A stretch of DNA of 49,568 nt. Origin: Nitrososphaerota archaeon (GTDB lineage: Archaea > Thermoproteota > Nitrososphaeria > Nitrososphaerales > UBA57). The translations under genes and the position numbers were made by a program. Where the stretch lies: NCBI GenBank assembly GCA_013378375.1, contig JACAFT010000004.1, positions 1 through 49,568 of the forward strand, given 5' to 3'. The notes under the pieces are model-generated. The model did no database searches. It saw only the letters and a list, made by a program, of their open reading frames with translations, and was not told where the DNA came from. This document shows, piece after piece, positions 23,010 through 49,437 of this stretch (positions are counted from its first letter, which is position 1; every line of letters begins with the position of its first letter).

Positions 23010-23882
23010 TTATTTTTTAGAAAATTTTTGTTCCAATTTATTAAAGTTATCATAATCAACAAGTTGATTAAATATATCAAAAGTAGTTAGATTTTTTTCA
23101 ATACCAACAGAAGTATTGTGTTTTTTAAGAAAAGTAAGTGCGTCAATCATGGCTTTAGTAGATGCGTATAAAGAAGTTAATGGAAATAAAATAATTTTAA
23201 ACCCTATTTTCTTAGCTTTTTTAAAAGGTATCATAGGAGTTTTACCTCCTTCTAATTGATTCAACAACAAAGGAAGTTTTACTTTTTTTGCAATAATTTC
23301 TAATTCATCAAGTTTATTGGGCGCCTCGATAAACAATAAATCAGCTCCAGCTCTCTTATAACTTTTAATTCGTTCTATTGCCAGATCAACACCATCAACA
23401 GCCAAGCTATCTGTTCTGCCAACAATAACCAAATTTGATTTTTCTTCTTTACGACTCTGAACTGCAGCACGAATTTTTGATTGCATGTCTTCAATAGAGA
23501 TTACTGATTTTCCTTTCATATGTCCGCATTTTTTTGGCCAAACCTGATCTTCTAATATCAATCCTGCAGCGCCAGAACGAATATAATTTTTTACGGTTCT
23601 CATAGTATTCAATGTATTTCCATAACCTGTATCAGCATCTGCAATAACAGGTATATCAATAGAATTACAGATAGATGAGACTCTTTCATTCATTTCGGAA
23701 AAACTTACTAAACCAATATCAGGAACGCCAAGTAATGTAGCTGCAGTTCCATAGCCAGTATGAAATACAGTATCAAAACCAACTTGTTGGGCAATCTTTG
23801 CACTTAAAGCGTCATAAATACCAGGCACCAGAATGGTATCATTATTTTGTAGAATTTTACGAAGGGATTTTGATTTATCCAT
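23010..23882 (-). CDS. Isocitrate lyase/PEP mutase family enzyme (2-methylisocitrate lyase-like)
   Basis: PG.YDA.SA, DADTGYG, EDQV.PKKCGH, RTD, GAD..F.EA. Confidence 0.9.
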   Translation of the reverse strand: MDKSKSLRKILQNNDTILVPGIYDALSAKIAQQVGFDTVFHTGYGTAATLLGVPDIGLVSFSEMNERVSSICNSIDIPVIADADTGYGNTLNTMRTVKNYIRSGAAGLILEDQVWPKKCGHMKGKSVISIEDMQSKIRAAVQSRKEEKSNLVIVGRTDSLAVDGVDLAIERIKSYKRAGADLLFIEAPNKLDELEIIAKKVKLPLLLNQLEGGKTPMIPFKKAKKIGFKIILFPLTSLYASTKAMIDALTFLKKHNTSVGIEKNLTTFDIFNQLVDYDNFNKLEQKFSKK

Positions 23883-27217: not shown

Positions 27218-27487
27218 ATGAGACAGTACAAAGTTGTTGCAGAAAGTACAAAAAAATTATTTGAAGAAGAATTGAATAAATTAGCAGAAGAAGGTTGGGA
27301 AATTATACATTATGGAAATTCAGTAAGTGTAGGATCAACAAGATCAAACACAATGGCATGTTTTAGTGCAATTTTAGAAAAAGAAAAAACAATAACTCGA
27401 AAAAAAGTAAAAACAAGTTCTAATAAAAAAAAGAAATCTACTGAAAAAAAAACAGATACATCATCAAATGAGTATTCAACAAACTAG
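27218..27487 (+). CDS. Small DUF4177-like protein with a Lys-rich tail
   Basis: QYKV...EELNKLAEEGWE motif. ATG at 27218 preferred over the track's 27095, which overlaps menA. Confidence 0.65.
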   Translation: MRQYKVVAESTKKLFEEELNKLAEEGWEIIHYGNSVSVGSTRSNTMACFSAILEKEKTITRKKVKTSSNKKKKSTEKKTDTSSNEYSTN

Positions 27488-28287
27488 TTTTCTATAGGTA
27501 AATCAGCACGAGTACTCCAATCGGCAAAAGAACGGTCATAAATTTTTACATTAGGATAATTACAAAATTGTAAAGCAACAAATGTGTGAGATGCACGCTC
27601 TCCAACCTGACAATAACAAATAATTTCCTTATCTTTAGTAATACCGTATTTTTCAAAGATTTTGTCAAGTTCTTCAATATTTTTAAAAATATACCCATCA
27701 GTACCAACTCCTATTTCCCAAGGAAAATTTATCGAACCAGGAATTCGACCTGCTTTAGGTCCAGCTGCAATAACTCCATTAAATTCGTCAGGGCTTCTTG
27801 TATCAAGTAAAATAGAATTTGAATCACTAAGCTTAGATTGGACATATTCATGATTTACTTTAAAATTTACAAAAGGAGTTGTAATAACAAAGTCAGTAGG
27901 TTGAATCTCAGGTACTTCTTCACTAACAGGATAACCTAATTGCAACCATTTAGAAAACGACGTATCAAGAAATTTTACAGTAATTCCATAATATTTTAGC
28001 GACCAGAACAAACGAGTTGCTGTTGCACCGTTTTTATCCCCGTATACAACAATCACGGAATCATTCGTGATTCCATTTACACTGAGTAATTTTTCTATTG
28101 CGTCTTGAGGAGCAACATCAAAAAAAGAAAGATCTTCAGAAAAACTTAATATTTTTTCATAAGGAATCAAATGCGCCCCAGGTAAATGAGATCGTACATA
28201 CTCACGCGGAGACCTTATATCAAAAGGAACAATATTTGGATCTTCAATATTATCTTTAAGCCAAGTAGCACTAATTAAATCAGTCAA
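27484..28287 (-). CDS. Two-domain rhodanese (thiosulfate/mercaptopyruvate sulfurtransferase)
   Basis: D.R...Y...HLPGA, A.RLFW.L, D.R...EF.G, GRIPGS, catalytic YCQVGERAS, YD.S..DW. Confidence 0.93.
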   Translation of the reverse strand: MTDLISATWLKDNIEDPNIVPFDIRSPREYVRSHLPGAHLIPYEKILSFSEDLSFFDVAPQDAIEKLLSVNGITNDSVIVVYGDKNGATATRLFWSLKYYGITVKFLDTSFSKWLQLGYPVSEEVPEIQPTDFVITTPFVNFKVNHEYVQSKLSDSNSILLDTRSPDEFNGVIAAGPKAGRIPGSINFPWEIGVGTDGYIFKNIEELDKIFEKYGITKDKEIICYCQVGERASHTFVALQFCNYPNVKIYDRSFADWSTRADLPIEN

Positions 28288-28515
28288 TTATTTTTTCCTC
28301 AAATAGAATTTAATATAGTTATTTTCCTCAGTTAGTTCTAATAATTCATGTCCTGAACGATTAGCCCATGCAGGTATATCTTCTTTTGCAGCAGGATCAG
28401 TAGCGGATATTTCCAATATTTGTCCACTCTGCATTTTTGAAATTAGTTGTTTTGTTTTTAAAACAGGGATGGGACAAACAAGTCCTTTAACATCTAATGC
28501 TTGATCAATTTTCAT
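28288..28515 (-). CDS. tusA: TusA/SirA-family sulfur carrier (copy 1)
   Basis: LDVKGLVCPIP (CPxP), ATDP....DI..W. Confidence 0.92.
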   Translation of the reverse strand: MKIDQALDVKGLVCPIPVLKTKQLISKMQSGQILEISATDPAAKEDIPAWANRSGHELLELTEENNYIKFYLRKK

Positions 28516-28543: not shown

Positions 28544-28783
28544 TTATATTTTATTAGTTTTAATTTCTATTTTAAACACACCGTCGTCAATTTCTTTAGA
28601 ACTAAGTATTTCATGTCCGTCTTTTTTTACTGCAGAAGGAATATTGATTGTTGATGGCAAATGATCAACAAGTACTTCTAAAACTTCACCGTTTTCTAAT
28701 TTTTTTAATTCTTTCACAGTAAAAATTACAGGCCAGGGACATACTTGTCCAACAAGATCAAGTTTCTTAGTTTGTGTTTGCAT
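28544..28783 (-). CDS. TusA/YeeD-family sulfur carrier (copy 2)
   Basis: LDLVGQVCPWP, LEVL.DH..S..NIP. Confidence 0.9.
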   Translation of the reverse strand: MQTQTKKLDLVGQVCPWPVIFTVKELKKLENGEVLEVLVDHLPSTINIPSAVKKDGHEILSSKEIDDGVFKIEIKTNKI

Positions 28784-28786
28784 GAA

Positions 28787-30217
28787 TCAGTTTCCACCAA
28801 TTTGTAATTGATTTAACAATATATCAGATGCAATCATGTCTTTTACGTCTTCCGAAACTTTAACAATTCCAGTTCCTTTGCCTAAAATTCGACCAATAAT
28901 TTGTGGATCATAACCCGATGCAGACAAATCAAGACTTATACTTTCTATTATATTTGGACTAGCAATAACAGCTACAGCGCCATTAGTGCCTGCAGTACCA
29001 TTGTCCATTAAGAAATTATCAGTAGCAAATTTAACAAATTCTGGATAACGAAGTGGTAAATTATCAATGGAGATATCAACATTTGCATTATCTGCATGTT
29101 CTTTAAAGATCATTATACCAGGACCAGAAAGATCGCCAGTGGCCAGAATATGTTCGTGAATATCAAAGTTGTTTTCAAAATCAGGCAGATATTTATTAAT
29201 AATTTTTGCGACTGCAAGATTAGGTTCGTTCATAGTTTCAATAACTGAATCCTTAGCACGTTGAACATCTTCAAGAGTATAACCAATGGTTTCAAGGTCT
29301 TTAAGGAAATTTTCGTCGGCTACACAAGACAAAAAGACGTTAATAGGTGCAAGATCGCCAAACGGACGTGTAACGAGAATTTCCATACCAGAATCTAACA
29401 AATTTAATTTAGTTGGAGGTTCTTTTCGTAATGAACCAAATAATGTAGCGCCAATTAGTAATTTATTTCGTTTAGGAGACTCTGCAGAAATTAATTCAAT
29501 TTTATATTTAGATGCGAAATTATCCATGTTTTTTAGAATTTGCGCTTCAATTTCTTGATTTGGTGCATCGACAACGGGCAAAACTTTCAGTTCTTCAAAA
29601 CAACCTAAAGATATTAAATCATTAAGAGAATTTGATACGGCGACATTTGTTTGTTGTTCAGATGAAGGGTCTGCAGTAGGATCAATAATTTGTATAGTAT
29701 CATTATTTGATAAACAATAACCGTCGGATCGTCCTTCTTCGTAAGAAATAAAATCAAAAAGTGCAAATTCTGCGTTTTCATCTCCAGTTATTATTGAATG
29801 TCCTTTTCCAACAGCAAAATTAACATTTGATTTAGATATTGATGTATAAAGACTAGTCAACAATGCTTGGAATTTTTCTTGCTTTTCTGCATTCTTTTGA
29901 AATACTTGTAATAGTGAAATAGCTCGTTTTGGATTAATTCGTCTAAGGTCATCTAAATCAACATCAGGATCAAATGGGTTGTAAATTCTGCGATTTATTA
30001 TTGGGCCACTGTCAGTTAAAGGAAATATATCAGCGTCAACTCTCTCACCAAGAGAAATTCCCATTTGTTTTAAATCCGGCTTTAAATTATGCAAAGTAGG
30101 ATAAACTACTGTATTAAGATCAACTTTAACAGCACAACCTGCCACCCATCTTAAAGGATCCATTCCCATTTCTCGGTATTTTGAGACATTGTCCCAAAAT
30201 TCTTGCTTCGTACTCAT
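28787..30217 (-). CDS. Archaeal SelD-like (selenophosphate synthetase-related, PurM fold) protein, putative thiophosphate synthetase
   Basis: AGCAVK matches the SelD C17/K20 spacing (Cys codon TGT). GHSI, NDTIQIIDP, SNSLNDL (N87/D91-like), TRPFG and GDLSGPG (DVTGFG-like) are present. At 476 aa it is longer than canonical SelD. Confidence 0.85.
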   Translation of the reverse strand: MSTKQEFWDNVSKYREMGMDPLRWVAGCAVKVDLNTVVYPTLHNLKPDLKQMGISLGERVDADIFPLTDSGPIINRRIYNPFDPDVDLDDLRRINPKRAISLLQVFQKNAEKQEKFQALLTSLYTSISKSNVNFAVGKGHSIITGDENAEFALFDFISYEEGRSDGYCLSNNDTIQIIDPTADPSSEQQTNVAVSNSLNDLISLGCFEELKVLPVVDAPNQEIEAQILKNMDNFASKYKIELISAESPKRNKLLIGATLFGSLRKEPPTKLNLLDSGMEILVTRPFGDLAPINVFLSCVADENFLKDLETIGYTLEDVQRAKDSVIETMNEPNLAVAKIINKYLPDFENNFDIHEHILATGDLSGPGIMIFKEHADNANVDISIDNLPLRYPEFVKFATDNFLMDNGTAGTNGAVAVIASPNIIESISLDLSASGYDPQIIGRILGKGTGIVKVSEDVKDMIASDILLNQLQIGGN

Positions 30218-30285: not shown

Positions 30286-31473
30286 ATGGTCGAATCAAAT
30301 AGAAGAGATTTTCTAAAGTATGGAGTTGGAGCAGCTGTTGGTCTAGGAATAGGAGGAGCAGGTTATCTATCTTCAAATTCTCAAGTTGGCACATTAACAA
30401 GTGAACTTGAACAGGTAAAAGAAAAATTACAAGGAAGAGGACATTTAGGCTATGTCTTTGGCGCTGAAGGATCAATTGCAACTATAGATCTAGCTCGTGG
30501 AAAAGTCTTAGCATCATCAGGACCTACTTGGATTGCAGATGCAGGAAGTATAGACTGGTGTAATCATTATCCGGATGCAAATGGAAATGTATGGGGACTT
30601 GTAAGAAAGCAAGGTCAAATAGGATCTACAATTGCAGTTAATCCAACTACGAATGAATTAGTTCACGATGTTCCATTAGAAGGAAGATGGAGAATAAGAT
30701 TAGGAGAAACAGATGAAGAAGGAAAATACGGATACATGTTAAATGGATATATTGCAGATAAATATGATTCAGAAAAATTTAACGCAGCAAGAGATGAATT
30801 TGAAATTCCATATAATGATATAGATCCAGGAGAAATTCATAAAATCGATCTTCTTAAGGGAGAAGTAGTTGATGTATTACCAGTTCCAAAATTCTGTTGT
30901 GACGTTGCAATAGCACCTGATGGTAAATTGTGGCTTGTAAATCAATTAGAGAGTTTGATTTCAGTAGTAGATACAAAGACATTCACAATTGAAGAACATT
31001 TAGGTACAGAATACTCTGACTATGGTGCAAGTATGATAACAATTTCACCCAACAATGATGTTGCATTTATCGAAGTAAATTCAGCAGGAAATTGGTCGAA
31101 TGCAGCTGGATTCAAGAATTTGGATCCGATTGAAATGGTATGGGATATTCAAGCAAAAGAGATGGTTAAAGAGTTTCCATTAGAAGCAGGTCCACGTACT
31201 AGTGAATTTACACCAGATGGAAAATACTGTGTAGTTAGAACCAGACCAGCATCAATAGTATATGATGTAGAAAGCTTGACTGAAGTCACGAGGATAGAAA
31301 TTGAGAATACTGGACATCCAGCATTTAGTCCTGACAGCACTCTTGCGTATATACCAAATCCTGGAGACAGTTCAGTTGATGTATTCGAGGTAGGATCTTT
31401 CAAGAAGGTCGATAGTCTAAAACTACCTTATTCACCATCAAAGATTGTTCCAATCAATACAAACAATTACTAA
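30286..31473 (+). CDS. Tat-exported YncE/YVTN-like beta-propeller protein
   Basis: NRRDFLK twin-arginine motif plus hydrophobic segment; blade repeats APDG, SPN, TPDG, SPD, ISVVD; Cys motifs WCNH, FCCD. Confidence 0.8.
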   Translation: MVESNRRDFLKYGVGAAVGLGIGGAGYLSSNSQVGTLTSELEQVKEKLQGRGHLGYVFGAEGSIATIDLARGKVLASSGPTWIADAGSIDWCNHYPDANGNVWGLVRKQGQIGSTIAVNPTTNELVHDVPLEGRWRIRLGETDEEGKYGYMLNGYIADKYDSEKFNAARDEFEIPYNDIDPGEIHKIDLLKGEVVDVLPVPKFCCDVAIAPDGKLWLVNQLESLISVVDTKTFTIEEHLGTEYSDYGASMITISPNNDVAFIEVNSAGNWSNAAGFKNLDPIEMVWDIQAKEMVKEFPLEAGPRTSEFTPDGKYCVVRTRPASIVYDVESLTEVTRIEIENTGHPAFSPDSTLAYIPNPGDSSVDVFEVGSFKKVDSLKLPYSPSKIVPINTNNY

Positions 31474-31482
31474 GTGGAATAG

Positions 31483-32553
31483 TTGTCAGAACAAAACAAT
31501 CAGAGATTACTATTAGTTAGCTCAATAATAGTTGGGTTAACAATAGGGTTTTTGATTGGAGGAACTTATGTATACCATTTAGACAATGAAGCAGAAATTA
31601 AACAATATCAAGCAGTAGTATTCAATACAATAGGTAAAACAGCAACTGTAATAGATAACATTCAGCTTAAGACTTTAACCAATATAGAAATTAACATTGA
31701 AGAAGGTCAGTACGGAGCACATTTTAATGAAAATAAGAACAAATTATATTTAATTCACGATGGAGAATCAGAATTATTTACTCTAAATCCACAATCATTA
31801 GAAATTGAATCAAGAGTTCGAGTAGGTCCAAATCTTCAACATGCAGGAATATTTGATGAGACTGGAGAAATATTTTTCTTGATAAGTCGTGACTCTAATT
31901 CTTTGATAATGATTAACACAACAACAGATCGAATAATATCGAGAATTGAAGTTCAAGAGCAGCCGCATCATATTGCACTGTTAAATGATGGAGTAGCAGT
32001 TACAAATACAAAATCACTATCAATATCAATTGTTGATATAATAAAAATGGAGGTCAAAGATAACATCAAGATTGATGCAGAACCATTAATGATAGTTTCA
32101 AACAAGAATGATAAAATGTTTGTAGGTGCAATAAATCCTTCAAAAATTTTCTTTATAGATAATAATGAAGTAAAGAACAGCATAAACTTAGAGTCAGATC
32201 CGCACGGAATAGCATTAACGTTAAATGGAGATAATCTTCTTGTGACTATACCTGAAGATGACAAAATATTAATAATAAATATGAAAGGAGAGATAGTGAA
32301 AGAACTAATGACAGGGAGTTTTCCGCATAATATAGATATAGATCCTGATGGAAGATACGGATACATCAGCAACAGTAATGATGCAAGTGTATCAATAATT
32401 GATTTAACAAATTTTGAAATTGTTGCAACATTAGAAACCGGAAACGGATCTCATAATGTACAATTTTACAATATATTGAATAGCAATACTCAATTGAACA
32501 AAATAAAAGACAATAACAAAATAATTAGTGCGAATTTCAATTGTGGGGGTTAG
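31483..32553 (+). CDS. Membrane-anchored YncE/YVTN beta-propeller with His-rich blades and C-terminal CGG
   Basis: N-terminal TM; repeats VGPNLQH, QPHHIA, DPHGIA, FPHNID, GSHNV, VSIID; ends ...ANFNCGG*. Confidence 0.85.
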   Translation: MSEQNNQRLLLVSSIIVGLTIGFLIGGTYVYHLDNEAEIKQYQAVVFNTIGKTATVIDNIQLKTLTNIEINIEEGQYGAHFNENKNKLYLIHDGESELFTLNPQSLEIESRVRVGPNLQHAGIFDETGEIFFLISRDSNSLIMINTTTDRIISRIEVQEQPHHIALLNDGVAVTNTKSLSISIVDIIKMEVKDNIKIDAEPLMIVSNKNDKMFVGAINPSKIFFIDNNEVKNSINLESDPHGIALTLNGDNLLVTIPEDDKILIINMKGEIVKELMTGSFPHNIDIDPDGRYGYISNSNDASVSIIDLTNFEIVATLETGNGSHNVQFYNILNSNTQLNKIKDNNKIISANFNCGG

Positions 32554-32556
32554 AGC

Positions 32557-33654
32557 ATGATAGAATATAATAATATTTTTTCATTAGGCGTGACAGTCTT
32601 GATTGGACTTGGTTTTGGAATACTTCTACAGAAAGGACGTTTTTGTTTTACAAGTGCATTGAGAGATTTTATCGCATTCAAAGATACAAGAGTACTAAAG
32701 GGAGTAATTATCGGAATTATTACAATGATGGCAGGTACTAGTTTAGCATACGTTTTGGGAGTTTCAAGTTCTAATTTCTGGGTATCAAATTATGGATTGT
32801 CAAATATCATAGGAGGATTCATCTTTGGAATAGGCATGGTTTATGGCGGAGGTTGTGCATCTGGAACATTGTATAGAGCAGGAGAAGGATATTTACATTA
32901 TTGGTTAGTGCTAATATCAGCGTGTGTTGGGTATGTAATATTTGCCGCATTATTTTCTGGATTATTTCTACCATACTTTTTCATTCCATTACAAATATTC
33001 GAAGGCTATAGTATAATTAGAAGTTTAGAAGTGTTAGCTCCTCTAGTACCAATATCAATAATATTAGGATTAGTAATTTATCTAAGAAAGAAAAATCAAT
33101 TAGATTTATCACAAGAAATAAGCAAGGTTCAATTTTCAAGTATTACGGTTAAGAAAATAAAATCAGAATGGGATGCAAAAATTGTTGGTTTAGGAATGGG
33201 AATACTAGCAACATTTTGGTTTGTTGTTTGGGGCACATTAAGTGTTACAGGTCCACAAGCAAGATGGGTAGGTTTAGCATACAGCAACATAGCAGGAATA
33301 GAAGTATTAGAACAAAATATGTACTGGAACAATGTTGTATTCAATGAAGGAAATTTTGCAATTAGTTTAGACATGATAATGTTAGTGTGTTTAATTTTTG
33401 GAGCATTTATATCTGCATACATGAGTGGAGATTTTAAAATAAGAACAATTAAATCTAAGAGAATACCCAATGCAGTATTAGGAGGACTAGTTATGGGATT
33501 TGGATCAAGAATGGCACCAGGATGTAATATTAGTAACACATTTAGCGGATTAGCATTTCTATCAGTTGCAGGATTTATAACATCATTAGGTTTAATATTA
33601 GGAGTATATGTTGCAACACATTGGATGTTTAGAAAAACAGGTTGCGCAATTTAG
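32557..33654 (+). CDS. YeeE/YedE-family sulfur-compound (thiosulfate) transporter
   Basis: RFCF, GG.IFGIGM...GGCASG.L, GG..MGFG.R.A.GCN (three conserved Cys); multi-TM. Confidence 0.93.
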   Translation: MIEYNNIFSLGVTVLIGLGFGILLQKGRFCFTSALRDFIAFKDTRVLKGVIIGIITMMAGTSLAYVLGVSSSNFWVSNYGLSNIIGGFIFGIGMVYGGGCASGTLYRAGEGYLHYWLVLISACVGYVIFAALFSGLFLPYFFIPLQIFEGYSIIRSLEVLAPLVPISIILGLVIYLRKKNQLDLSQEISKVQFSSITVKKIKSEWDAKIVGLGMGILATFWFVVWGTLSVTGPQARWVGLAYSNIAGIEVLEQNMYWNNVVFNEGNFAISLDMIMLVCLIFGAFISAYMSGDFKIRTIKSKRIPNAVLGGLVMGFGSRMAPGCNISNTFSGLAFLSVAGFITSLGLILGVYVATHWMFRKTGCAI

Positions 33655-33666
33655 GAGTAATAAATA

Positions 33667-33945
33667 ATGTCAAAAGAAATAGAAATATCAAATGAGGAAA
33701 TTACTGAATTGGAAACCAATTCGAGTTCAATAGACATGGAAGGAGAAGTTTGTCCTTATCCTCAAATCATTGCGCGAGAAGAACTAAAGAAAATAGAACC
33801 TGGAGGAATTGTAATTATTAAAACAGATCATGTAATGGCAACTAAAGCAGTACCTCAATCAGTAATTGAAGAAATATCAAAATATGGTATTTGGAAATCA
33901 GGAGCAGGTCAATATAAAATAGTATTGTGGAAAAAAAGCAAATAA
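33667..33945 (+). CDS. TusA/YeeD-family sulfur carrier (copy 3, partner of YeeE)
   Basis: IDMEGEVCPYP, TDH..A...VP; directly after YeeE; GGAG upstream. Confidence 0.88.
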   Translation: MSKEIEISNEEITELETNSSSIDMEGEVCPYPQIIAREELKKIEPGGIVIIKTDHVMATKAVPQSVIEEISKYGIWKSGAGQYKIVLWKKSK

Positions 33946-33995: not shown

Positions 33996-35498
33996 TTGTC
34001 ACTTAGAATTGCATATGCTGGAAGTATACAAATTATAACTCAATTCGCTACACTGTTTACAGGTCTAGCTTTTGTCATCATAATTACACGAAACTTATCA
34101 GTAGAAGAATTTGGGCTTTGGCAGGTCTTAGGAAACACAATTGGACTGGCGGTAATCCCAATATTCCCAATTGGATACTGGGCTCTAAGGAATATTTCAC
34201 GTGGAGAAGATGTAGGAAAAACTGCAGTATATTCTGGTATTATATCCATTCCAATAATCATTCTCGGATATATTATACTATTAACGTTTGCATCTACAAT
34301 ATTTGAAGCGGGATTTAATTCACCAATATTATATCTGGCAGTTATTGCAATGGTTCAAATACCATTTTTAGTATTAATTGAACCATTCAAATCAATAATA
34401 CGCGGAACACGTCCTCAATTTATAGGTTATTCATCATTAGGTTTTGAAATTGCAAAAGTGAGTGTAGCCTATTACTTAGTACATATCAACAGTTTATCAT
34501 TAATCGGCGCAATAATATCATTAGCTGCGGCACAACTAATTCAAGTTCTTATCATGTATTATGGTTCGTATAATAGAATTCGTGGTAAATTTCAAATTAA
34601 TGTAGCACGTTCTTGGATTTCAGCATCATGGATTCCATTTTTTGGTTTTGGCGTCAGTAGAATATTTTTATTTGATTCTTTAATTGTTTCTCTACTTGCA
34701 GGTACAACTATAATAGTTGGACTTTATGCAGCATGTAAGACATTTACATCAATAGTAAGATATAGCGAAATATTTCAACGAATTTTGTATCCAAAATTAA
34801 TGAAAGATAAACTTTCCAGTGATGTCACAATGACTCTAAAACTACAAACATTGGTACAAGTTCCACTCGCTATAGGAGCTTTCATGCTTGCAGAACCGCT
34901 TTTAGGTATATTAAAAGCAGATTATGTACAAGTTGCAAATGTACTTCGTCTATTAATCATTGTAGCAATCTTTGAAGGAATAGAAAATGCAGTGCAAAAC
35001 GTTCTAATAGGTTCAGAGGATTCAGACAGAGATATCAATAATCTTAAATTTAAAATCTTAAGGAAAACATGGTTATTCAAACTCCCACTTATTGACGTAT
35101 TCAAATCTTTACTTTATGTAGGAGGATTGGCCGCAATAATACTTATTTTCAAAAATACAACAGACAACATTACTTTAGCTTTATACTGGGGAATTCTTTA
35201 TGCAGGAATAGTAATTCCATTTACAATTTTTAAATACATAGCAGCTCGTTCAGTAATGCCTTTTGTCTTTCCAAAAACTCAAGCAATAATATACTCAATT
35301 GGTGGTGTAATAATGGTGTTATTCTTACAATTTTATAAAAATACTTTTCAATGGACGCAATCAGGAATATTAGAAACAATCATATATATAATTCCTCCAG
35401 GAATAATTTCAGTAGGAATCTATGTAATTTTTGTATATATCTTTGAAAAAGACTTTAGAATACTTGTTCAAAATCTTGTAAAAAATATATCCAACTAA
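33996..35498 (+). CDS. Oligosaccharide flippase (Wzx/MOP family)
   Basis: TRNLS.EEFG.W, about 13-14 hydrophobic segments; starts the glycan cluster. Confidence 0.8.
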   Translation: MSLRIAYAGSIQIITQFATLFTGLAFVIIITRNLSVEEFGLWQVLGNTIGLAVIPIFPIGYWALRNISRGEDVGKTAVYSGIISIPIIILGYIILLTFASTIFEAGFNSPILYLAVIAMVQIPFLVLIEPFKSIIRGTRPQFIGYSSLGFEIAKVSVAYYLVHINSLSLIGAIISLAAAQLIQVLIMYYGSYNRIRGKFQINVARSWISASWIPFFGFGVSRIFLFDSLIVSLLAGTTIIVGLYAACKTFTSIVRYSEIFQRILYPKLMKDKLSSDVTMTLKLQTLVQVPLAIGAFMLAEPLLGILKADYVQVANVLRLLIIVAIFEGIENAVQNVLIGSEDSDRDINNLKFKILRKTWLFKLPLIDVFKSLLYVGGLAAIILIFKNTTDNITLALYWGILYAGIVIPFTIFKYIAARSVMPFVFPKTQAIIYSIGGVIMVLFLQFYKNTFQWTQSGILETIIYIIPPGIISVGIYVIFVYIFEKDFRILVQNLVKNISN

Positions 35499-35508
35499 AG
35501 AACAAAAA

Positions 35509-36126
35509 TTATTTCCATGCAACAATAGTACCTGCAAGCGCACAAAACCGTTGATTAACTGCACTTAATGAAAATATGTAAGGAGTAATAATTGAATCCA
35601 ACGTAGTCTGTTTTTCACGGCCCTTAATTCCGAAGCCTCTCACATTATAACCACGTGTCACAAAATCCTTGTATATCCAAGAAGACTTATGTCGCAATGG
35701 TTCAATGTCAGGATCATTACAGAGACTTTTTTTGTGTGAATGTAATGTTGTAGGTGCAGTAACAATATGATGTTTAGAAATTCTTTCAAGTTCAGATAAT
35801 AAATGATTGCCTTCATTTTTTTCAAGATGTGCTAAAACACCACTAGCAATTCCAATATCAATACTTTTATCGTTATGAGGTAATTTGCTTTTTCCAATAT
35901 CAAGTTTATTCATCGTTTCATAAGCATATCCAAGAGACTTTGCATAATCCAAAGCTGGTTGATAAGAATCATAACCATATATTTCAATAGCCTTGTGTGG
36001 ATGATCTAATTTTATTGCAAAACCTAACCGTCCAAAACCCATACCAGCATCAACAATTTTACAAGATTCAAGATTATCAATCCAAGAATTTACATGATGA
36101 TTTACATATCTGTTCCACAAAAACAC
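35509..36126 (-). CDS. Class I SAM-dependent methyltransferase
   Basis: IVDAGMGFG, LP..D.S.D, VLAHL, H.S.W. Confidence 0.8.
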   Translation of the reverse strand: MFLWNRYVNHHVNSWIDNLESCKIVDAGMGFGRLGFAIKLDHPHKAIEIYGYDSYQPALDYAKSLGYAYETMNKLDIGKSKLPHNDKSIDIGIASGVLAHLEKNEGNHLLSELERISKHHIVTAPTTLHSHKKSLCNDPDIEPLRHKSSWIYKDFVTRGYNVRGFGIKGREKQTTLDSIITPYIFSLSAVNQRFCALAGTIVAWK

Positions 36127-36127
36127 A

Positions 36128-37342
36128 TCACCTATGATTAATTACTCTCAAATTTGGCATAGGAATAATATAATTCAAATTTGGATGTTTTTCTTCAACT
36201 TTAGCAATAATTTCATCTGCGTAATTCCATGCAAAAATCATTAAATAATCTGGCGTTTCATCTTGTAATATTTCTGGACCTGTTATCGGAATATGACTGC
36301 CAGGTGTAAATAGTCCTTGTTTTAATGGGGAATCCTCTATAATTAATTCAACATTACTATTGTCTAATCCAATTGAATTAATCATAGTACTAGATTTTGC
36401 TGGCGCCCCATAACCAAAAATTCTTTTTTTCTCGTTGCTTAATCTGTTAAATAATTCTCGAATCTCATTAATGTTATTCTGAAGTTGGTCATTAAATTTC
36501 TCCAATGTATGTAAATCATCGATTCCGTTTTGTTTTTCTTCTTTTAGTAAATCGTCAACACTATGATGTCTAGGATTATTTGTTTTAGAAATATAACCAC
36601 GGATTGATCCTCCGTGTGTTGGAATCTTTTCAACTTTGTATACATTCATATTATGTTTATCAAATAAATTAATCATTGAATGTACAGTATAATACAACAC
36701 ATGTTCATGATATATATTGTCAAACGTCATATCTTTAATCATATCTGCAAAATACTGTACTTCGACAATGTAAGTTCCATTTTCTGACAATAATGACTTT
36801 ATATTTTCAATGATATCATGATATTCGTCCAAATGTGCAAAAACATTTGATGCAACGACTATATCAGCATGACCGCTATCGGAAATAATTTTATCAACAA
36901 TCTCTTTATTAAAATACGAACATAGAGTTGTAAGTCCATTAACATTAGCTTGTTTAGCCAGATTAGCCGCAGGTTCTACTCCAATTGCCTCACAACCCAG
37001 TTCTAACAATGGTTTTAATAACACTCCATCATTTGAACCAATATCCACTACGATTTTCGGATTAAATTCAGATTTTAACTGATTAGCTAATTCTGTGAAA
37101 TGATTTCTCAATCCTCCTGAAATAGAAGACGCATATGCATAATCTAGAAATAATTTATCCCTAGGAATATAACTCTCTTCAGTCAATTGTACAAGCAAAC
37201 AATTCTTACAACAAGTCACGTCTAAAGGATAAGAAATTTCTTTATCAAAGTCATCTTCTTTAAGAAAGGCATTTGCAGGTGGTTGACGTTTTAATGAAAT
37301 GAATTCTAAGAATTCTTTGTGATTACATGATCTGCATCTCAA
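36128..37342 (-). CDS. NDP-hexose C-methyltransferase (Zn-binding N-domain), paralog 1
   Basis: CRSC, CKNC.LVQL, DIGSNDG, NVFAH, YHEH, HGGS.R, GYGAPAK, AWNY. Confidence 0.92.
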   Translation of the reverse strand: MRCRSCNHKEFLEFISLKRQPPANAFLKEDDFDKEISYPLDVTCCKNCLLVQLTEESYIPRDKLFLDYAYASSISGGLRNHFTELANQLKSEFNPKIVVDIGSNDGVLLKPLLELGCEAIGVEPAANLAKQANVNGLTTLCSYFNKEIVDKIISDSGHADIVVASNVFAHLDEYHDIIENIKSLLSENGTYIVEVQYFADMIKDMTFDNIYHEHVLYYTVHSMINLFDKHNMNVYKVEKIPTHGGSIRGYISKTNNPRHHSVDDLLKEEKQNGIDDLHTLEKFNDQLQNNINEIRELFNRLSNEKKRIFGYGAPAKSSTMINSIGLDNSNVELIIEDSPLKQGLFTPGSHIPITGPEILQDETPDYLMIFAWNYADEIIAKVEEKHPNLNYIIPMPNLRVINHR

Positions 37343-38064
37343 ACTTCCGGCACCCTGATTATTGGTTCTTGGTCTTTTATAATAACAACATCTGAACCAT
37401 TAGATACATCAAGATCACCCAACAATATCCTTGAGATTATATCAGTGATTCTCGACGTAGTTTGTTGATTTTGTGCATCACTCTGTCCAAATACCATCGC
37501 CCTCATTCCAGTATTAACTCCTGCAGGAGAGATTGAAATACACTTAATATCTGTATCTTGAACTTCTTTTGCCGCAGATTCTGTTAAACCTCTTACAGCA
37601 AATTTCGCAGCAGTATATGCTGATAATTTAGGTACGGCTCGTCTTCCAGCACGTGACGACATGTTAATTATTGTTCCTGAATTATTTCGTTTCATCACAG
37701 GCATCACATGTTTTATCATATTGAATGTAGGTAGTAAATTATCTTTTACAATGGAACTTAACATATCTGAACTAATATCTTCAACTAAAGCTAAATTATG
37801 CGCTACCCCTGCGTTGTTGATTAGAATATCTATACTATCTTCTTTTTGTATAATTCCTTTAATATATTTCTCGACGTTTTTTTCATTAGATAAATCTAAT
37901 AATTCAAAAATACATTCCTGTTTGTCTTTTGTTGTTATCTCTCTTTCGTTTCTTGATGAAGCATACACAATTGCTCCTTCTTGAATAAAATATCGTAATA
38001 ATGCATGTCCAATTCCACTAGAAGATCCAGTCAGAATAATTCTTTTATTTTCAAATGCTTTCAT
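37339..38064 (-). CDS. Short-chain dehydrogenase/reductase
   Basis: TGSSSGIG, INNAG, SS, YTAAK, P...NT.M. Confidence 0.92.
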   Translation of the reverse strand: MKAFENKRIILTGSSSGIGHALLRYFIQEGAIVYASSRNEREITTKDKQECIFELLDLSNEKNVEKYIKGIIQKEDSIDILINNAGVAHNLALVEDISSDMLSSIVKDNLLPTFNMIKHVMPVMKRNNSGTIINMSSRAGRRAVPKLSAYTAAKFAVRGLTESAAKEVQDTDIKCISISPAGVNTGMRAMVFGQSDAQNQQTTSRITDIISRILLGDLDVSNGSDVVIIKDQEPIIRVPEV

Positions 38065-38432
38065 ATTATTTCATGAGGTATTGTGTCTTTGTCATATTTA
38101 CCTTTAAGCCGTTTCTGTGTTGTCATTGCAAGAAATATAGAACTCTCGAGGAACTTCATTGCGTGTGGAACACCAGGTGCACTATAGACCATTTCACCAG
38201 CTTTCACAGTTACTTTCTCAACTTTTCCACTTTTTCTCTCTTCGTAATATTTCATCTTTCCCTTAATGATATAGGACCAATGTGAGTCTCTTTTATGATA
38301 ATGATTTGCCCTTATCGCACCTTTTTTTGAAGTAATAATTACAATACTGGTTACAGGTTTCTCTAAAATATTTGTTATCTTCCCTCTTTTATCGATAAAA
38401 GATTCTTTTATTTTGATTACTTTAATTGTCAT
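38061..38432 (-). CDS. Cupin-fold sugar isomerase/epimerase (FdtA/WxcM/RmlC-like)
   Basis: F.D.RG.I, RANHYH, PG..HA. ATG at 38432 overlaps the upstream stop (TAATG), so it is preferred over 38450. Confidence 0.8.
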   Translation of the reverse strand: MTIKVIKIKESFIDKRGKITNILEKPVTSIVIITSKKGAIRANHYHKRDSHWSYIIKGKMKYYEERKSGKVEKVTVKAGEMVYSAPGVPHAMKFLESSIFLAMTTQKRLKGKYDKDTIPHEII

Positions 38433-39343
38433 TATAAATTCCTCATCCATTGTACTGTATTTTCTATACCTTCTTCAAAGGATACCTTTGGAGAATATCC
38501 AAAATCCCTTTTTGCTTTGTCAATTGATAGCGATAATTTCATACCTTTCTCGCCAGATCGCCATGGTAAATTCTTAATAGAAGAGCTGCTATTTGTTTTT
38601 TCCAAAACAGTATCAACGATTTCTTTAACAGAATATTCTTTTCCATATGCAATATTGTATACGCCAGAAAGTTCATTATTTGTAATTGAGATAATTGAAT
38701 TCACCAAGTTTTGTACATAATTAAAATCAGTTGATTGACTACCATCACCTTCTATAGTAATTGGAGAATTTTCAAGAGCTTGTTTAATAAATATAGGAAT
38801 AGCTTGTTGTAATCGAGAATACGGACCAAAAAGTCCACTGCTTCTAATAATTGTTATTGGCAATCCAAATGAAGATGAATAACTTTGACACATCAGATCC
38901 GCCGCTGCTTTACTTGCCCCATAAGGATCAGTAGGTCGGAGAGGTTCCTCCTCGACGATAGGTAAATTAGTAGATTTTCCATAAACATTCTTACTACTCA
39001 TATAAACAAGACGAGTATTTTGTTTATTCCTCAATAATTCTAGTACATTAATCAGGCCACTAGTGTTAACATAAAATGAATATTTTGGAGAAGAAAGAAC
39101 AAGAGGAACATCAGCTTGTGCAGCCAAGAAAACAATACAATCAACATTAACTAAATCTTCATCGTTAAGATCTTCTGCACTTTTCCAGAGATAATGAATT
39201 GAATCCATATACGGTTTTATTCTAAGAGCTGATTCCGGCCCAATTATATCAGAAACAGTTACATCGATTTGTTCGTCGAGTAAGCTCTTGATTAGATGTG
39301 AACCTAAAAATCCAGATCCTCCCACAACTAGGAATTTTTTCAT
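38432..39343 (-). CDS. NAD-dependent nucleotide-sugar epimerase/dehydratase
   Basis: GGSGFLG, SS..VYG, YGASK, GDG.Q..DF. Confidence 0.93.
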   Translation of the reverse strand: MKKFLVVGGSGFLGSHLIKSLLDEQIDVTVSDIIGPESALRIKPYMDSIHYLWKSAEDLNDEDLVNVDCIVFLAAQADVPLVLSSPKYSFYVNTSGLINVLELLRNKQNTRLVYMSSKNVYGKSTNLPIVEEEPLRPTDPYGASKAAADLMCQSYSSSFGLPITIIRSSGLFGPYSRLQQAIPIFIKQALENSPITIEGDGSQSTDFNYVQNLVNSIISITNNELSGVYNIAYGKEYSVKEIVDTVLEKTNSSSSIKNLPWRSGEKGMKLSLSIDKAKRDFGYSPKVSFEEGIENTVQWMRNL

Positions 39344-39460
39344 TGTTAAGTTAGAAATTCCCAGACATTATATATGAATCTTCAGGATTGTCGTGTTAAT
39401 AATTCCAAAATTTTGGTTATAAACAGAAATTTCATATTGTTAGACAGGTATGAATAATAT

Positions 39461-40234
39461 ATGAAAATTGTAGGAGCCATGCAAATAGGAGGCAATTGTT
39501 CATGGATCTTAGATTCTAGTCTAAAAAATCTAAGTTCATTAGTTGATGAGATTGTAGTTGTTGGAACAGGAAACATACCAGAAGAAACAAGGAAAATTAT
39601 CGCAAATTATGATAAAATTGTTGATAGTCACTTTGACATCAACATAGCTAATAGAATTGAATGGAATGATATGAATAAACTATTAAATATGGCACAAAAG
39701 AGGCAAGCAGATTGGATACTGTTCATGGACGCTGACGAAACTTTTGAACCTCGACTTGCAAAAGAGATACGACAACTGGTAAAGAATTCCACAGCAGGTA
39801 TGTATAGATTTAAGAGACATTGGTTGTGGAAAGATACAAATCATTACAGGGTAGATCGTCCTGATAAATTTTCTACAATATCATTTAACACTTATTTGGT
39901 TCGTTCAAACTCATCACTGGTATTTCCTAATCCTGCTGGAAAAATATTAAAAAGAATAATAAAACATGTATCAGGAAAAGAAAAACTACGTCCATATTTT
40001 GGAAGAGATCCAATAACTGGTGTTAAAGGTAAAGTTATTGAAACAGATATAATATTACTGCATCACGCGGCATTAAATTGGTCACAATTCATACAGAATC
40101 AGATCTGGTACGCCACACTAATTTCTAAAAGACAACCCAAACGAAAGGAAGAAGAAATTGTAAATCAGTTTTATAGTATTATCGATGAATCAACATTAAA
40201 ACTTGAACAAGTAAAACCTGAATGGTTTGAATGA
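39461..40234 (+). CDS. GT2-like glycosyltransferase
   Basis: VDEIVVV, DWILFMDADE, LLH. Confidence 0.75.
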   Translation: MKIVGAMQIGGNCSWILDSSLKNLSSLVDEIVVVGTGNIPEETRKIIANYDKIVDSHFDINIANRIEWNDMNKLLNMAQKRQADWILFMDADETFEPRLAKEIRQLVKNSTAGMYRFKRHWLWKDTNHYRVDRPDKFSTISFNTYLVRSNSSLVFPNPAGKILKRIIKHVSGKEKLRPYFGRDPITGVKGKVIETDIILLHHAALNWSQFIQNQIWYATLISKRQPKRKEEEIVNQFYSIIDESTLKLEQVKPEWFE

Positions 40235-40251
40235 AGACAGTATTGAGATGA

Positions 40252-41145
40252 ATGGGAATGAAAAAAAAAGTATTGATAGTAGGTTCAGATAGTGCAATAG
40301 GAACTAAAATAGTTAATCATTTCAAGGATAAATATGATTTAATCGGATTATCTAGGAAAAAAATAAACAATTCAATAACAAATCATGTGTTTGATTTGGA
40401 TAAAACGGATATATCAGGTTTACCAGATATATCAGCAGATATCTGCATAGTATTTTCATCTATAACAGATATAGATGTCTGTGAAAAATTTCCAAAAAAA
40501 GCTTTTAAAACCAATGTTGAAGGAACAAAAAAGATTTTTGATGCATTAAAAATTAACAAAATTAAGCGTTTAATTTATTTTTCTACAGGAACGGTTGTAT
40601 CAGGATATGATACACCAATGAATGAGAATATGACTCCATCGCCACCAAATGTATACTCAGTAACCAAGCATCTTGCCGAGAAAGAGATTAAAAATTATTC
40701 AGAATTTTTTGATTCCATAGTTATTAGACCTTTCTTTGTGTATGGACCAAATACAAGGCACAATCGTCTAATATACAATCTGATTACTAATATTGCAAAA
40801 AAGAATACTATAAATCTAAATATAGATGCAAAACCAAAAATTAATCCGATATATATAGACGACGTAATACAAATAATACAATTATTAGTGGAAAATAAAA
40901 ATAACATATCTTTTGATTGTATTAACATTGCAGGAAATGAGGTAGTATCAATAAAAGAATTAGCAGAAAAAATTTCAAAAATTCTTAAAACTAGTATAAT
41001 TTTTAAAGAATCAGAAAATAATTCAAAAAATATCATAGCAGATATTACAAAATTAAAAGAAAAATATAATTATAAATTTCAATTCAAATTAGATGAAGGA
41101 CTGGAACGTATGATTTTTGCAATGCAAAATAAAAATTTAATATAA
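40252..41145 (+). CDS. NAD-dependent epimerase/reductase with a degenerate Gly-rich motif
   Basis: VGSDSAIG, TNVEGT, YSVTK, R...VYGP, PIYIDD. Confidence 0.85.
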   Translation: MGMKKKVLIVGSDSAIGTKIVNHFKDKYDLIGLSRKKINNSITNHVFDLDKTDISGLPDISADICIVFSSITDIDVCEKFPKKAFKTNVEGTKKIFDALKINKIKRLIYFSTGTVVSGYDTPMNENMTPSPPNVYSVTKHLAEKEIKNYSEFFDSIVIRPFFVYGPNTRHNRLIYNLITNIAKKNTINLNIDAKPKINPIYIDDVIQIIQLLVENKNNISFDCINIAGNEVVSIKELAEKISKILKTSIIFKESENNSKNIIADITKLKEKYNYKFQFKLDEGLERMIFAMQNKNLI

Positions 41146-41153
41146 AAATAGAT

Positions 41154-42389: not shown

Positions 42390-42479
42390 ACATTTACCCA
42401 CATTCATTATATCTAATAACCTTTATTTTTCAGTGAATACCGACATACTAAAATTACTGATTAACCAATTTATTTCAAC

Positions 42480-45159: not shown

Positions 45160-45223
45160 CAGTCATTAATTTTTTTTCCACTTGATAAATGTTCATATTA
45201 ATTAACAGAATATTAATTTAATA

Positions 45224-46150: not shown

Positions 46151-46204
46151 ATTTATCAATGTATTTGTAAATTAATCAATTACAGGATCAGGAGGCGTAT
46201 TGAT

Positions 46205-47419: not shown

Positions 47420-47420
47420 T

Positions 47421-47687
47421 TTAAACAGACTTGACTTTAGCATGTTTATCCAGAATACCATCAATACTCAATAAATCTTTATAATAGATTTTTGATTTGA
47501 AATCACAGTATCCACATATAACTCGGATAAAACTCGTGTTAGTATCAAGAGTAACGCGTAAAGAACAAGGCAATTCAGAATTATTATTCTCGCCATTCAT
47601 CAATGGACAAGAATTACATTTCAAATCTTTTACGGTTTTAATTATTCTGAATCTATTTGTTTCGTTCAATAAACAACTCACGTTCAA
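47421..47687 (-). CDS. Small Cys-rich putative Zn-finger protein
   Basis: CNSC and CGYC pairs plus extra Cys; fills the gap after the QueF-like gene; start uncertain because of overlap. Confidence 0.55.
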   Translation of the reverse strand: MNVSCLLNETNRFRIIKTVKDLKCNSCPLMNGENNNSELPCSLRVTLDTNTSFIRVICGYCDFKSKIYYKDLLSIDGILDKHAKVKSV

Positions 47688-48042: not shown

Positions 48043-48077
48043 ATTATATTATATAATTATTATACATATTAATTAGA

Positions 48078-49403: not shown

Positions 49404-49437
49404 ACATATTTTGATGATACATTGAAATAAATGGATT

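Follow-up and report, generated by a model that had tools for sequence, protein, structure and literature searches.

A membrane-anchored beta-propeller with a conserved cysteine tail beside a YeeE-family transporter in Nitrososphaerota: a candidate extracellular sulfur carrier

The DNA analysed, here called the window, is a 49,568-nt stretch of the forward strand of contig JACAFT010000004.1 from a Nitrososphaerota archaeon (GCA_013378375.1). It contains four consecutive genes on the same strand, encoding a propeller with a TAT signal, a second propeller that ends in a Cys-bearing tail (the Cys-tailed propeller), a YeeE/YedE-family transporter and a small TusA/YeeD-like carrier. On the other side of the first propeller gene, on the opposite strand, lie a SelD-related gene, two TusA genes and a tandem-rhodanese gene, see Table 1.

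Table 1. Genes and sub-gene features at the locus, with their positions in the window and the evidence for each.
Feature	Position	Strand	Evidence
Tandem-rhodanese gene	27484..28287	-	Pfam Rhodanese E 7e-35
TusA gene	28288..28515	-	Pfam TusA (E of the pair 4.5e-20, 4.9e-26)
TusA gene	28544..28783	-	Pfam TusA (E of the pair 4.5e-20, 4.9e-26)
SelD-related putative sulfur metabolism protein, divergent	28787..30217	-	NF038049, 547.6 bits vs cut-off 250
Upstream TAT-signal propeller, 395 aa, FCCD motif	30286..31473	+	TIGR01409; homologue alignments
Cys-tailed propeller gene, 356 aa	31483..32553	+	ORF; YVTN/YncE Pfam and NCBIfam matches; AF2 model
N-terminal membrane anchor, residues about 9-33	31507..31581	+	AF2 helix 7-33; mean column conservation 0.67
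Seven-blade propeller body, residues 43-329, 3+1 Velcro closure	31609..32469	+	AF2 strands; Foldseek
Variable disordered Asn/Lys-rich linker, residues 330-345	32470..32517	+	pLDDT; column conservation
Conserved tail tip K-I-I-S-A-N-F-N-C-G-G, residues 346-356	32518..32550	+	Column conservation; C354/G355 invariant
YeeE/YedE-family sulfur transporter	32557..33654	+	Pfam Sulf_transp E 5.6e-56; 6LEO match E 6.6e-27
TusA/YeeD-like sulfur carrier, 92 aa, CPYP motif	33667..33945	+	Pfam TusA E 8.4e-10

The gene of the Cys-tailed propeller starts with TTG and stops with TAG, and its product ends in ...LNSNTQLNKIKDNNKIISANFNCGG. C354 is the sole Cys of the protein; its TGT codon, read directly from the DNA, occupies 32542-32544, and the ATG of yeeE follows at 32557, 3 nt past the stop. 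The first-pass annotation had described a beta-propeller with a single Cys in an ANFNCGG end, placed after an Asn/Lys-rich linker and directly upstream of YeeE. The reading frame, the domain matches and the short gap all agree with this description. In homologues, basic residues stand ahead of the anchor helix, e.g. MKKLSKNGNK.

The body of the Cys-tailed protein belongs to the YVTN/YncE-type propellers. Three models match above their cut-offs: YNCE (Pfam PF21783, 30.6 bits vs 27.1), PF02239 (30.5 vs 25.5) and TIGR02276 (39.2 vs 27.85). The AF2 model, with a mean pLDDT of 85.7, has seven blades, and the 28 strands are arranged as 3 + 6x4 + 1. Its best Foldseek match is 1l0q_A (E 5.6e-20, TM 0.73), the YVTN domain of an archaeal S-layer protein, which shares the propeller fold. 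Searches of the ESM Atlas returned generic YncE, lactonase or YVTN clusters only, for both propellers. When metagenomes were scanned for diverged relatives, one of 80 loci (L021) was found to belong to the family, and the rest carry another YVTN subfamily. Among these other propellers, which represent essentially that one subfamily, none of the 30 genes with a complete 3' end encodes a Cys within the last 15 residues, and none of the 79 loci has a YeeE match.

Each blade of the Cys-tailed propeller has a His or Met at the start of the innermost strand, and H120, H162, M203, H241 and H282 are invariant in an alignment of 12 sequences. Such residues would suit an extracellular substrate receptor in which an anion or a metal is bound where His and Met line the mouth of the central channel, with the tail Cys serving as ligand or lid, and the Foldseek matches include AztD (6n01, 6cmk) and BtuG (8okv, 8blw, 8ptf). 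However, these matches are to generic seven-blade folds, unrelated YVTN propellers often have a P-H-G-type His at the same repeat position (P0087; the 'SPHG' family), and in the family member P0021 neither H80 nor H163 is conserved. Judging from the strand topology, the tail would also exit on the face opposite the His ring, and AF2 leaves it undocked on the propeller. We consider a receptor function quite unlikely. A CuZ-like metal site of seven His was likewise dropped, given how common the P-H-G His is in unrelated YVTN propellers and the lack of conservation of H80 and H163.

The strongest conservation is found in the tail tip. The mean column conservation is highest in the tip (0.82), compared with 0.43 in the linker and 0.42, the lowest value, in the eight-residue N-terminal stub. 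Each of the 13 full-length members of the family (29-100% identity) contains a single Cys, and in every case it lies in the tail; the fragments P0007, P0011, P0012 and P0125 are omitted from this count, and P0014, apparently a chimeric gene call, has the ANFNCGG end. C354 and G355 are invariant in the 12-sequence alignment, which reaches down to 29% identity. At the DNA level, six of the seven tip codons vary synonymously across eight distinct versions, which indicates that selection on the tip acts at the protein level. Residues 334 to 356, in the tail of about 25 residues, have pLDDT values below 50 in the AF2 model. Of the genome's 1041 ORFs that encode 100 aa or more, one has a CGG C-terminus, where the composition gives an expectation of 0.04; by this measure the CGG end is beyond chance.

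Hence, the part of the first-pass expectation that concerned the Cys stands, but the CGG end is not universal. One genus (G010) ends in ANFNCG-TGA and one metagenomic lineage (P0037, L021) in [FY]TCGAYIHVRD, i.e., the tip is not always terminal. P0021 ends in ANFTCGG; its genomic context was not found in the metagenome scan. In G010, an apparent open frame of 728 aa was dismissed, as a TGA follows CG and yeeE lies in the same frame two codons on; read-through is not claimed. A search for longer relatives gave no fused forms at E up to 1e-20, which is weak evidence, and there was no single-stretch fused form among the best 150 matches of an exhaustive search.

The arrangement of the four genes is stable. 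Every locus with enough contig (L002-L009, L013-L019) has the order TAT propeller, Cys-tailed propeller, YeeE and TusA-like carrier, and the diverged metagenomic locus L021 keeps it as well. Of 41 related genomes, 9 contain both propellers, and these are also the ones with an intact YeeE; the genomes compared are kin and stand for one or two evolutionary events. A further 400 genomes of the phylum gave no match at the family level. The SelD-related gene adjoins the module in 7/7 genome-contig loci with enough upstream flank. Taken together, operon order and co-occurrence strongly back the association with YeeE. Contigs from four metatranscriptome runs, belonging to three studies, span the TAT propeller gene and the 5' part of the Cys-tailed gene, and those in X16 and X17 (two studies) bridge the junction between the two genes; such libraries may contain DNA. 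These contigs stop at about 32081, leaving the tail and yeeE without a contig, from which nothing is concluded either way.

The upstream propeller matches the TAT signal model TIGR01409 (18.7 vs a cut-off of 16.7). Its RRDF[IL]KY motif is kept in 12 aligned sequences, and L021 keeps only the RR pair. With homologues at 61-92% identity, this protein is far better conserved than the Cys-tailed propeller. C205 is invariant and C204 is conserved in 11 of the 12 sequences; by repeat alignment, C205 occupies the position of the conserved His in the blades of the Cys-tailed propeller. The AF2 model has a mean pLDDT of 68 with a low-confidence N-terminal blade, and a Foldseek search with it gave generic propellers only, e.g. 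1l0q and the quinohemoprotein amine dehydrogenase beta subunit. Conservation of the TAT signal or anchor was considered as evidence of helix packing with the Cys-tailed propeller and dropped, as the signal region recurs, at 61-68% identity, in another exported protein of each genome. The first-pass annotation had overlooked this propeller with its invariant pocket Cys just upstream.

The TAT propeller with its pocket Cys is as likely a partner for the tail as YeeE, and this leads to the main rival of a carrier function, i.e., that the tail is a docking or tethering element. The tip could bind the TAT propeller, by strand addition and/or a C354-C205 disulfide, or it could plug or gate YeeE, and the Cys-tailed protein would then be a scaffold that keeps an otherwise soluble, exported enzyme at the membrane and close to the transporter. 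The constant position of the TAT propeller gene ahead of the Cys-tailed gene, their co-occurrence, the conserved Cys pair and the placement of C205 at a blade-His position fit such a role, as do the low confidence of the N-terminal blade and a tail Cys that is not always terminal. The 11 conserved tip residues have an alternating hydrophobic pattern, and the strand-like K-I-I-S-A-N-F suggests a docking peptide as much as a bare swinging arm. In addition, the propeller body evolves much faster than its neighbours (in G010 it is 37% identical, while the TAT propeller reaches 89% and YeeE 62%), which fits a scaffold and counts against a sulfur carrier. However, a disulfide with a structural role could do without a long variable linker, the conserved Gly-rich TAT signal region may itself stay as an anchor, making a tether less necessary, and the co-fold with YeeE described below exceeded all its controls, though weakly. 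Overall, we regard docking or tethering as somewhat unlikely, yet as the main rival.

The transporter is a member of the YeeE family and is not assigned to the TsuA or YedE equivalogs, since its NCBIfam scores lie under the cut-offs (NF052577 130.9 vs 400, NF041049 107.8 vs 645, NF033796 164.3 vs 350). C30, C100, C323 and R236 align to C22, C91, C293 and R215 of StYeeE (6LEO), and these three pathway Cys and the Arg are invariant in seven sequences. In StYeeE, the N terminus faces the outside and C293 is among the residues lining the outer indentation (PMC7449682). From the AF2 helix at residues 7-33, the strand order, this topology and the alignment of C323 to C293, the Cys-tailed propeller is predicted to be a type II protein with propeller and tail outside, on the side of the outer Cys of YeeE. 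The N-terminal anchor and the TAT-exported partner likewise point to an extracytoplasmic site. Given the AF2 strand order and canonical propeller geometry, the tail and the anchor stalk would leave the same face of the propeller. The first-pass idea that the tail faces YeeE is therefore in line with the modelled topology.

The co-fold of the two proteins, which that annotation had put forward, came out above all three controls but only weakly so: ipSAE was 0.36, 0.23 and 0.37, the best control reached 0.01, and the verdict was 'weak support'. Contact agreement between the runs was at least 67% and the partner pLDDT at least 80. Of 80 solved complexes, 58 reach the mark used, as do 2 of 110 mismatched pairs; at ipSAE of 0.60 or less, only 7 of the 80 solved complexes reach it, together with both passing mismatches. 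As the co-fold comes without a given interface, entry of the tail into YeeE cannot be read from it.

It might also be considered that the locus is a selenium module, a triad of the YedE/YedF/SelD type in which the tail Cys captures selenite as a selenotrisulfide. The best partial NCBIfam match of the transporter is indeed selen_YedE_FdhT (164 bits), that of the small carrier is YedF, and a SelD-related gene is next door. However, the selen_YedE_FdhT and YedF matches are all under the curated cut-offs (the small carrier also has a weak TsuB match, under its cut-off), and the SelD relative fits the NCBI 'putative sulfur metabolism' family well. The three TusA genes and the rhodanese in the surroundings speak against selenium too, and neither tRNA 2-selenouridine synthase nor SepSecS was found in this genome, which is 87% complete. 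A selenium function seems very unlikely.

The genomic background is compatible with a need for sulfur import. Small-genome heterotrophic marine Thaumarchaeota are reported to have neither sulfite reductase nor sulfonate transport (PMC13374868). In the compared genomes, a NIR_SIR match was found in none of the six module-bearing genomes and in 5/5 sister-genus genomes without the module, a family that also takes in nitrite reductases. For the NIR_SIR family, these counts agree with that report. ATP sulfurylase was not found in the genome studied here; with 87% completeness, its absences are provisional.

We suggest that the Cys-tailed propeller could be a subunit dedicated to a lineage-specific module for sulfur import, made up of the TAT propeller, the Cys-tailed propeller, YeeE and the TusA-like protein, with cytoplasmic backing by the products of the SelD-related, TusA and rhodanese genes. 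The C354 thiol, on its flexible tail, would pick up extracellular sulfane sulfur or a thiosulfonate, where polysulfide, polythionate, zero-valent sulfur or an organic persulfide are candidate sources; the Cys-Cys pocket of the TAT propeller might process the source beforehand. The tail, exiting beside the anchor on what the strand topology predicts to be the membrane-facing side of the propeller, would then present the sulfur to C323, the outer Cys of YeeE, and C100 and C30 could relay it onward to the TusA-like protein. Next to the gene anatomy, conservation, synteny, co-occurrence and predicted fold and disorder observed at these loci, a physical contact between the Cys-tailed propeller and YeeE is presumed. 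That the Cys-tailed propeller is a SoxY-like carrier, with sulfur held covalently on C354, is in our judgement a tentative reading, a little short of an even chance. Against it also counts that a lone exposed thiol would be prone to oxidation in oxic seawater, and an extracellular reductant is not evident.

A bolder version can be speculated on, in which YeeE-family channels are fed by a protein-tethered persulfide. C354 would swing between the pocket of the TAT propeller, then a new kind of exported enzyme that mobilises sulfur, and C323, forming a continuous Cys relay from the cell exterior across the membrane to TusA, and this would be the sole route of sulfur assimilation in an abundant deep-ocean lineage that has lost sulfite reduction. 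We think of this version as unlikely. If the carrier function is true, it would explain how small-genome heterotrophic marine Thaumarchaeota, an abundant group of the dark ocean, acquire sulfur, and the few proteins that carry sulfur on a Cys arm would be joined by one with a new scaffold. The operon ties a candidate presenter firmly to the transporter, giving a compact four-gene system that is testable in E. coli. No published description of a Cys-tailed propeller with YeeE was found, and the supplementary tables of PMC13374868 and PMC11582611 may list YeeE genes from these archaea; YeeE, thiosulfate and rhodanese are absent from the text of the HMT genome paper PMC7300363.

SoxY carries sulfur adducts covalently on a flexible peptide arm (PMC5336275, PMC11237559). 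The Cys-tailed propeller is similar in its predicted extracytoplasmic location, in a single Cys near the C terminus followed by Gly-Gly and in a flexible arm, where the Cys is reactive in SoxY. Thus, of the SoxY-like arm proposed in the first-pass annotation, a mobile tail predicted to lie outside is retained, but the likeness does not extend to homology. The two proteins have no sequence or fold relation, since the Cys-tailed protein is a membrane-anchored seven-blade propeller with an arm of about 25 residues, and no match to the SoxY domain (PF13501, NCBIfam SoxY models) was obtained in it at E up to 0.01. The tip reads NFNCGG and is not Gly-flanked like the GGCGG of the SoxY arm, only the Cys-Gly pair is invariant, and the Cys is not always terminal. 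A SoxY gene was not found in the genome (87% complete).

BtuG and AztD are also extracytoplasmic seven-blade propellers serving uptake, but the likeness ends with the generic fold. Their cargo, B12 or Zn, is held non-covalently in the propeller; they lack a Cys tail, and their partners are TonB-dependent or ABC transporters. On the transporter side, the YeeE/YeeD (TsuA/TsuB) system resembles the locus in a transporter with three essential Cys and an Arg followed by a TusA-like gene (PMC7449682), and the fused YeeE-YeeD structures 8J4C and 8K1R are among the matches listed for the transporter of the locus. The literature consulted on TsuA/TsuB describes no extracytoplasmic accessory protein, and the Cys-tailed propeller may represent a new kind of extracellular accessory that delivers sulfur to a YeeE importer.

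A further parallel is provided by the SoxT work (PMC11582611), which states that it is unknown how sulfur reaches YeeE-type importers from outside. There, the YeeE-like SoxT1A of Hyphomicrobium denitrificans is proposed to accept the sulfane sulfur of the SoxY Cys and to relay it along three Cys. Both systems would bring Cys-bound sulfur from outside the cytoplasmic membrane into a three-Cys YeeE-family channel and on to TusA or rhodanese proteins, and in both, accessory thiol proteins are encoded beside the transporter (PMC11582611). However, the SoxT1A system is bacterial and dissimilatory and uses a carrier (SoxYZ) and helpers (DsbA-like, SoxS) that are soluble thioredoxin or Ig-like proteins, whereas the module described here has its Cys on a propeller, a second, TAT-signal propeller, an archaeal host and a likely role in assimilation.

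The gene singled out by the first-pass annotation is present as described. Its product, the Cys-tailed propeller, has a YVTN/YncE-type body that scores above the curated cut-offs of Pfam and NCBIfam and a tail ending in ...LNSNTQLNKIKDNNKIISANFNCGG, followed directly by the stop codon; C354 in this tail is the sole cysteine of the protein, and a YeeE-family gene starts 3 bases beyond the stop. The Cys-tailed propeller very probably serves, outside the cytoplasm, as a dedicated part of a sulfur import module centred on YeeE.

Features of the sulfur module, its neighbourhood and related loci (window coordinates unless a contig or locus is named)
Feature	Position	Strand	Description
TAT propeller	30286-31473	+	395 aa; upstream of Cys-tailed propeller; twin-arginine signal, TIGR01409 above cut-off
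Cys-tailed propeller	31483..32553	+	356 aa; TTG start, TAG stop
YeeE	32557-33654	+	365 aa; downstream of Cys-tailed propeller; Pfam Sulf_transp, E 5.6e-56
TusA/YeeD-like gene			downstream of Cys-tailed propeller with YeeE
SelD-related 'putative sulfur metabolism' gene			divergent; 547.6 bits vs cut-off 250
Two TusA genes and tandem rhodanese			divergent; sulfur module neighbourhood
Trm1, archaeal phosphopantothenate synthetase, RadA-like gene			archaeal marker genes in the window
S-adenosylmethionine synthetase	15651-16748	-	bacterial type; three MetK domains, E 6e-30 to 2e-56
PEP mutase / isocitrate lyase family gene	23010-23882	-	PF13714, E 1.4e-47; adjoins glycosyltransferases
Surface-glycan gene island	33996-49568		beyond sulfur module
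~241-aa protein, window's genome (G000)	C23:49231-50040 = L107:5232-6032	-	lineage-specific, without Pfam family
~241-aa protein, g4 genome (G010)	L108:2622-3056	-	directly upstream of propeller-YeeE operon, same strand, at contig end
'Animal haem peroxidase' family gene (G000, contig C23)	L107:3505-5229	-	574 aa; PF03098, E 2e-144; 3 nt downstream of ~241-aa protein gene
TGA after tail CG, g4 genome (G010)	L009:1498-1500	-	yeeE in same reading frame two codons on

All related loci with sufficient contig share the gene order TAT propeller, Cys-tailed propeller, YeeE, TusA-like, and the diverged locus L021 keeps it among other flanking genes. Both propellers and an intact YeeE co-occur in the same nine of 41 related genomes, eight of genus g1 (the window's genome among them) and one of genus g4; one more genome holds YeeE in broken pieces only. 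A further 400 genomes sampled from the phylum yielded no family-level match. Judged by identity between g1 and g4 (89% for the TAT propeller, 62% for YeeE and 37% for the Cys-tailed propeller), the three proteins differ strongly in evolutionary rate. Metatranscriptome contigs from four libraries in three studies cover the 5' third of the Cys-tailed propeller gene as well as the TAT propeller gene, and the junction is bridged in two libraries, X16 and X17, from two studies; as such libraries may contain DNA, the contigs give no more than a hint of expression. Reading the module as a selenium system (YedE/YedF/SelD) is less likely, since the NCBIfam selenium models are not reached and searches of the window's genome found no selenouridine synthase and no SepSecS.

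Structurally, the AF2 model of the Cys-tailed propeller, built on a 12-sequence alignment (mean pLDDT 85.7), consists of a helix at residues 7-33, a stalk (34-42) running into the first N-terminal strand, and 28 strands forming seven blades: three strands at the N terminus, then six four-stranded blades and a single strand at the C terminus. The closest structural match is an archaeal S-layer YVTN propeller (1l0q_A, E 5.6e-20, TM 0.73). A receptor or metal site is a quite improbable role, as the His positions are generic among YVTN repeats. Basic residues precede the helix in the homologues and the partner is exported by the TAT route, which should place the body outside the cell. The tail, with pLDDT below 50 over residues 334-356, exits the single C-terminal strand, which bears the A-strand motif S-H-N-V-Q-F. 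In a canonical propeller, the entry point of the stalk and the exit point of the tail share one face, opposite to the His-bearing face, so the shared face should be the one turned to the membrane. By this geometry, rather than from coordinates, the tail would begin near the central axis above the membrane-facing side, and its disordered stretch of roughly 25 residues is long enough for contact with an adjacent membrane protein. The tail would thus sit on the outer side facing YeeE, where the first-pass annotation had supposed it, and not away from it.

The YeeE of the window aligns to Spirochaeta thermophila YeeE, whose structure is solved (6LEO, E 6.6e-27), with C30, C100, C323 and R236 matching C22, C91, C293 and R215. 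Excerpts of PMC7449682 place the N terminus of the latter outside, report its three cysteines as essential and describe C293 and R215 as lining a positively charged outer indentation, the thiosulfate-binding site. Relative to that protein, the window's YeeE carries an insertion of about eight residues past the outer Arg loop (residues ~245-270, around YWNNVVFNEG), where N254, Y256, W257, V260 and V261 are invariant; this insertion is a candidate docking surface on the outer side. At the cytoplasmic side, YeeE ends in a conserved G-C-A-I.

Co-folding of YeeE (7-row alignment) with the Cys-tailed propeller (12-row alignment) gives ipSAE values of 0.36, 0.23 and 0.37 against 0.01 for the best control, a verdict of 'weak support'. 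Of 80 solved complexes, 58 attain this mark, as do 2 of 110 mismatched pairs; at 0.60 or below, only 7 of the 80 do so, together with both passing mismatches. The runs share at least 67% of contacts, which are not listed, with partner pLDDT of at least 80. The models are compatible with contact and silent on where the tail is placed.

The family of the Cys-tailed propeller is small, with 13 full-length members known here: 12 (P0001-P0006, P0008-P0010, P0013, P0021, P0037; 29-100% identity) from word-indexed and exhaustive phmmer searches, and L021 from a metagenome contig; the fragments P0007, P0011, P0012 and P0125 are left outside the tail count. In each of the 13 the tail holds the sole Cys of the protein, and C354 and G355 are invariant. 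The free CGG end seen in the first-pass annotation is not universal: g4 ends in ANFNCG before TGA and the P0037/L021 lineage in [FY]TCGAYIHVRD. The CGG-ended tail is beyond chance, being the only one among the 1041 ORFs with 100 aa or more in the 918,577-base genome of the window (0.04 expected from amino-acid composition). Column conservation averages 0.82 over the last 11 residues, against 0.69 for the propeller and 0.43 for the linker. Among eight distinct DNA versions of the gene, 6/7 tip codons vary synonymously with residues unchanged, thus the constraint acts on the peptide and not on, e.g., the yeeE ribosome-binding site. The main rival to a sulfur-carrying Cys, rather unlikely in our view, is that the 11-residue tip docks or disulfide-tethers to the TAT propeller, or forms a lid on YeeE. 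This would account for the conserved residues flanking the Cys, for the 7 extra residues found in one lineage and for the rapid evolution of the body.

In G010, a genome search reported a 728-aa 'open frame' at the tail/yeeE junction. Topology would allow read-through or an ancestral fusion there, as both joined ends would face the cell exterior; sequence searches found no fused form.

The TAT propeller (moderate AF2 model, mean pLDDT 68) carries an F-C-C-D-V motif in which C205 is invariant down to 33% identity and C204 conserved in 11/12 aligned sequences. By a repeat motif aligned by eye, C205 would occupy the position that the conserved His has in the P-H-G motifs, where an innermost strand begins. 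Its homologues (the window's copy, P0178, P0180) look mosaic, with blocks alternating between two sequence types, and one MAG (G001, contigs C17 and C4) has two copies at 90% and 71% identity, which points to recombination or to mixed strains at this locus. In every g1 and g4 genome, the ~241-aa protein has its signal and Gly-rich region in common with the TAT propeller (61-68% identity), and it may be a further module component. The neighbouring haem peroxidase, of a family one would not expect in a marine thaumarchaeon with so small a genome, may be co-exported with it.

Elsewhere in the window, the PEP mutase / isocitrate lyase family gene may mark phosphonate biosynthesis, and the S-adenosylmethionine synthetase is of bacterial type in an archaeal genome. 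The surface-glycan island encodes a 500-aa multi-pass protein without Pfam match, C-methyltransferases, epimerases, dehydratases, asparagine synthase, glycosyltransferases and UDP-glucose dehydrogenase.

A free thiol can react spontaneously with polysulfide, zero-valent sulfur or tetrathionate and needs an oxidant to react with thiosulfate, so thiosulfate may not be the real substrate of the tail Cys. The tetrathionate reaction served to load SoxY, according to part of PMC5336275. The window has a G+C content of about 30%, and its genome (87% complete, ~0.9 Mb) would place it with the heterotrophic marine Thaumarchaeota of small genome size portrayed in excerpts of PMC7300363. No ATP sulfurylase was found in this genome. 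NIR_SIR (sulfite or nitrite reductase) has no match in it or in five other module-bearing genomes (70%-96% complete) and has matches in 5/5 sampled sister-genus genomes without the module, a comparison among kin that amounts to one or two events and a family that is not sulfite-specific. Passages of PMC13374868 describe heterotrophic marine Nitrososphaerota as Cys- and Met-poor and without sulfite reductase or sulfonate transport. This fits a lineage that depends on reduced-sulfur import via the YeeE module.

We tentatively regard the tail Cys as a candidate sulfur carrier, because it is the protein's only thiol, invariant and carried on a mobile arm, its channel partner has a Cys-lined pathway, TusA and rhodanese acceptors are present in the cytoplasm, other sulfur assimilation is lacking, and the YeeE-like SoxT1A is proposed, in part of PMC11582611, to take sulfane sulfur from the SoxY cysteine. 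Full-text literature searches found no published description of a propeller partner of YeeE. By family the Cys-tailed propeller belongs to the YVTN propellers and is not a SoxY, but it may act as SoxY does in the SoxYZ-to-SoxT1A model. Like BtuG and AztD, it may be a propeller serving a transporter. It would represent a putative Cys-arm sulfur carrier, or transporter accessory, on a new scaffold.
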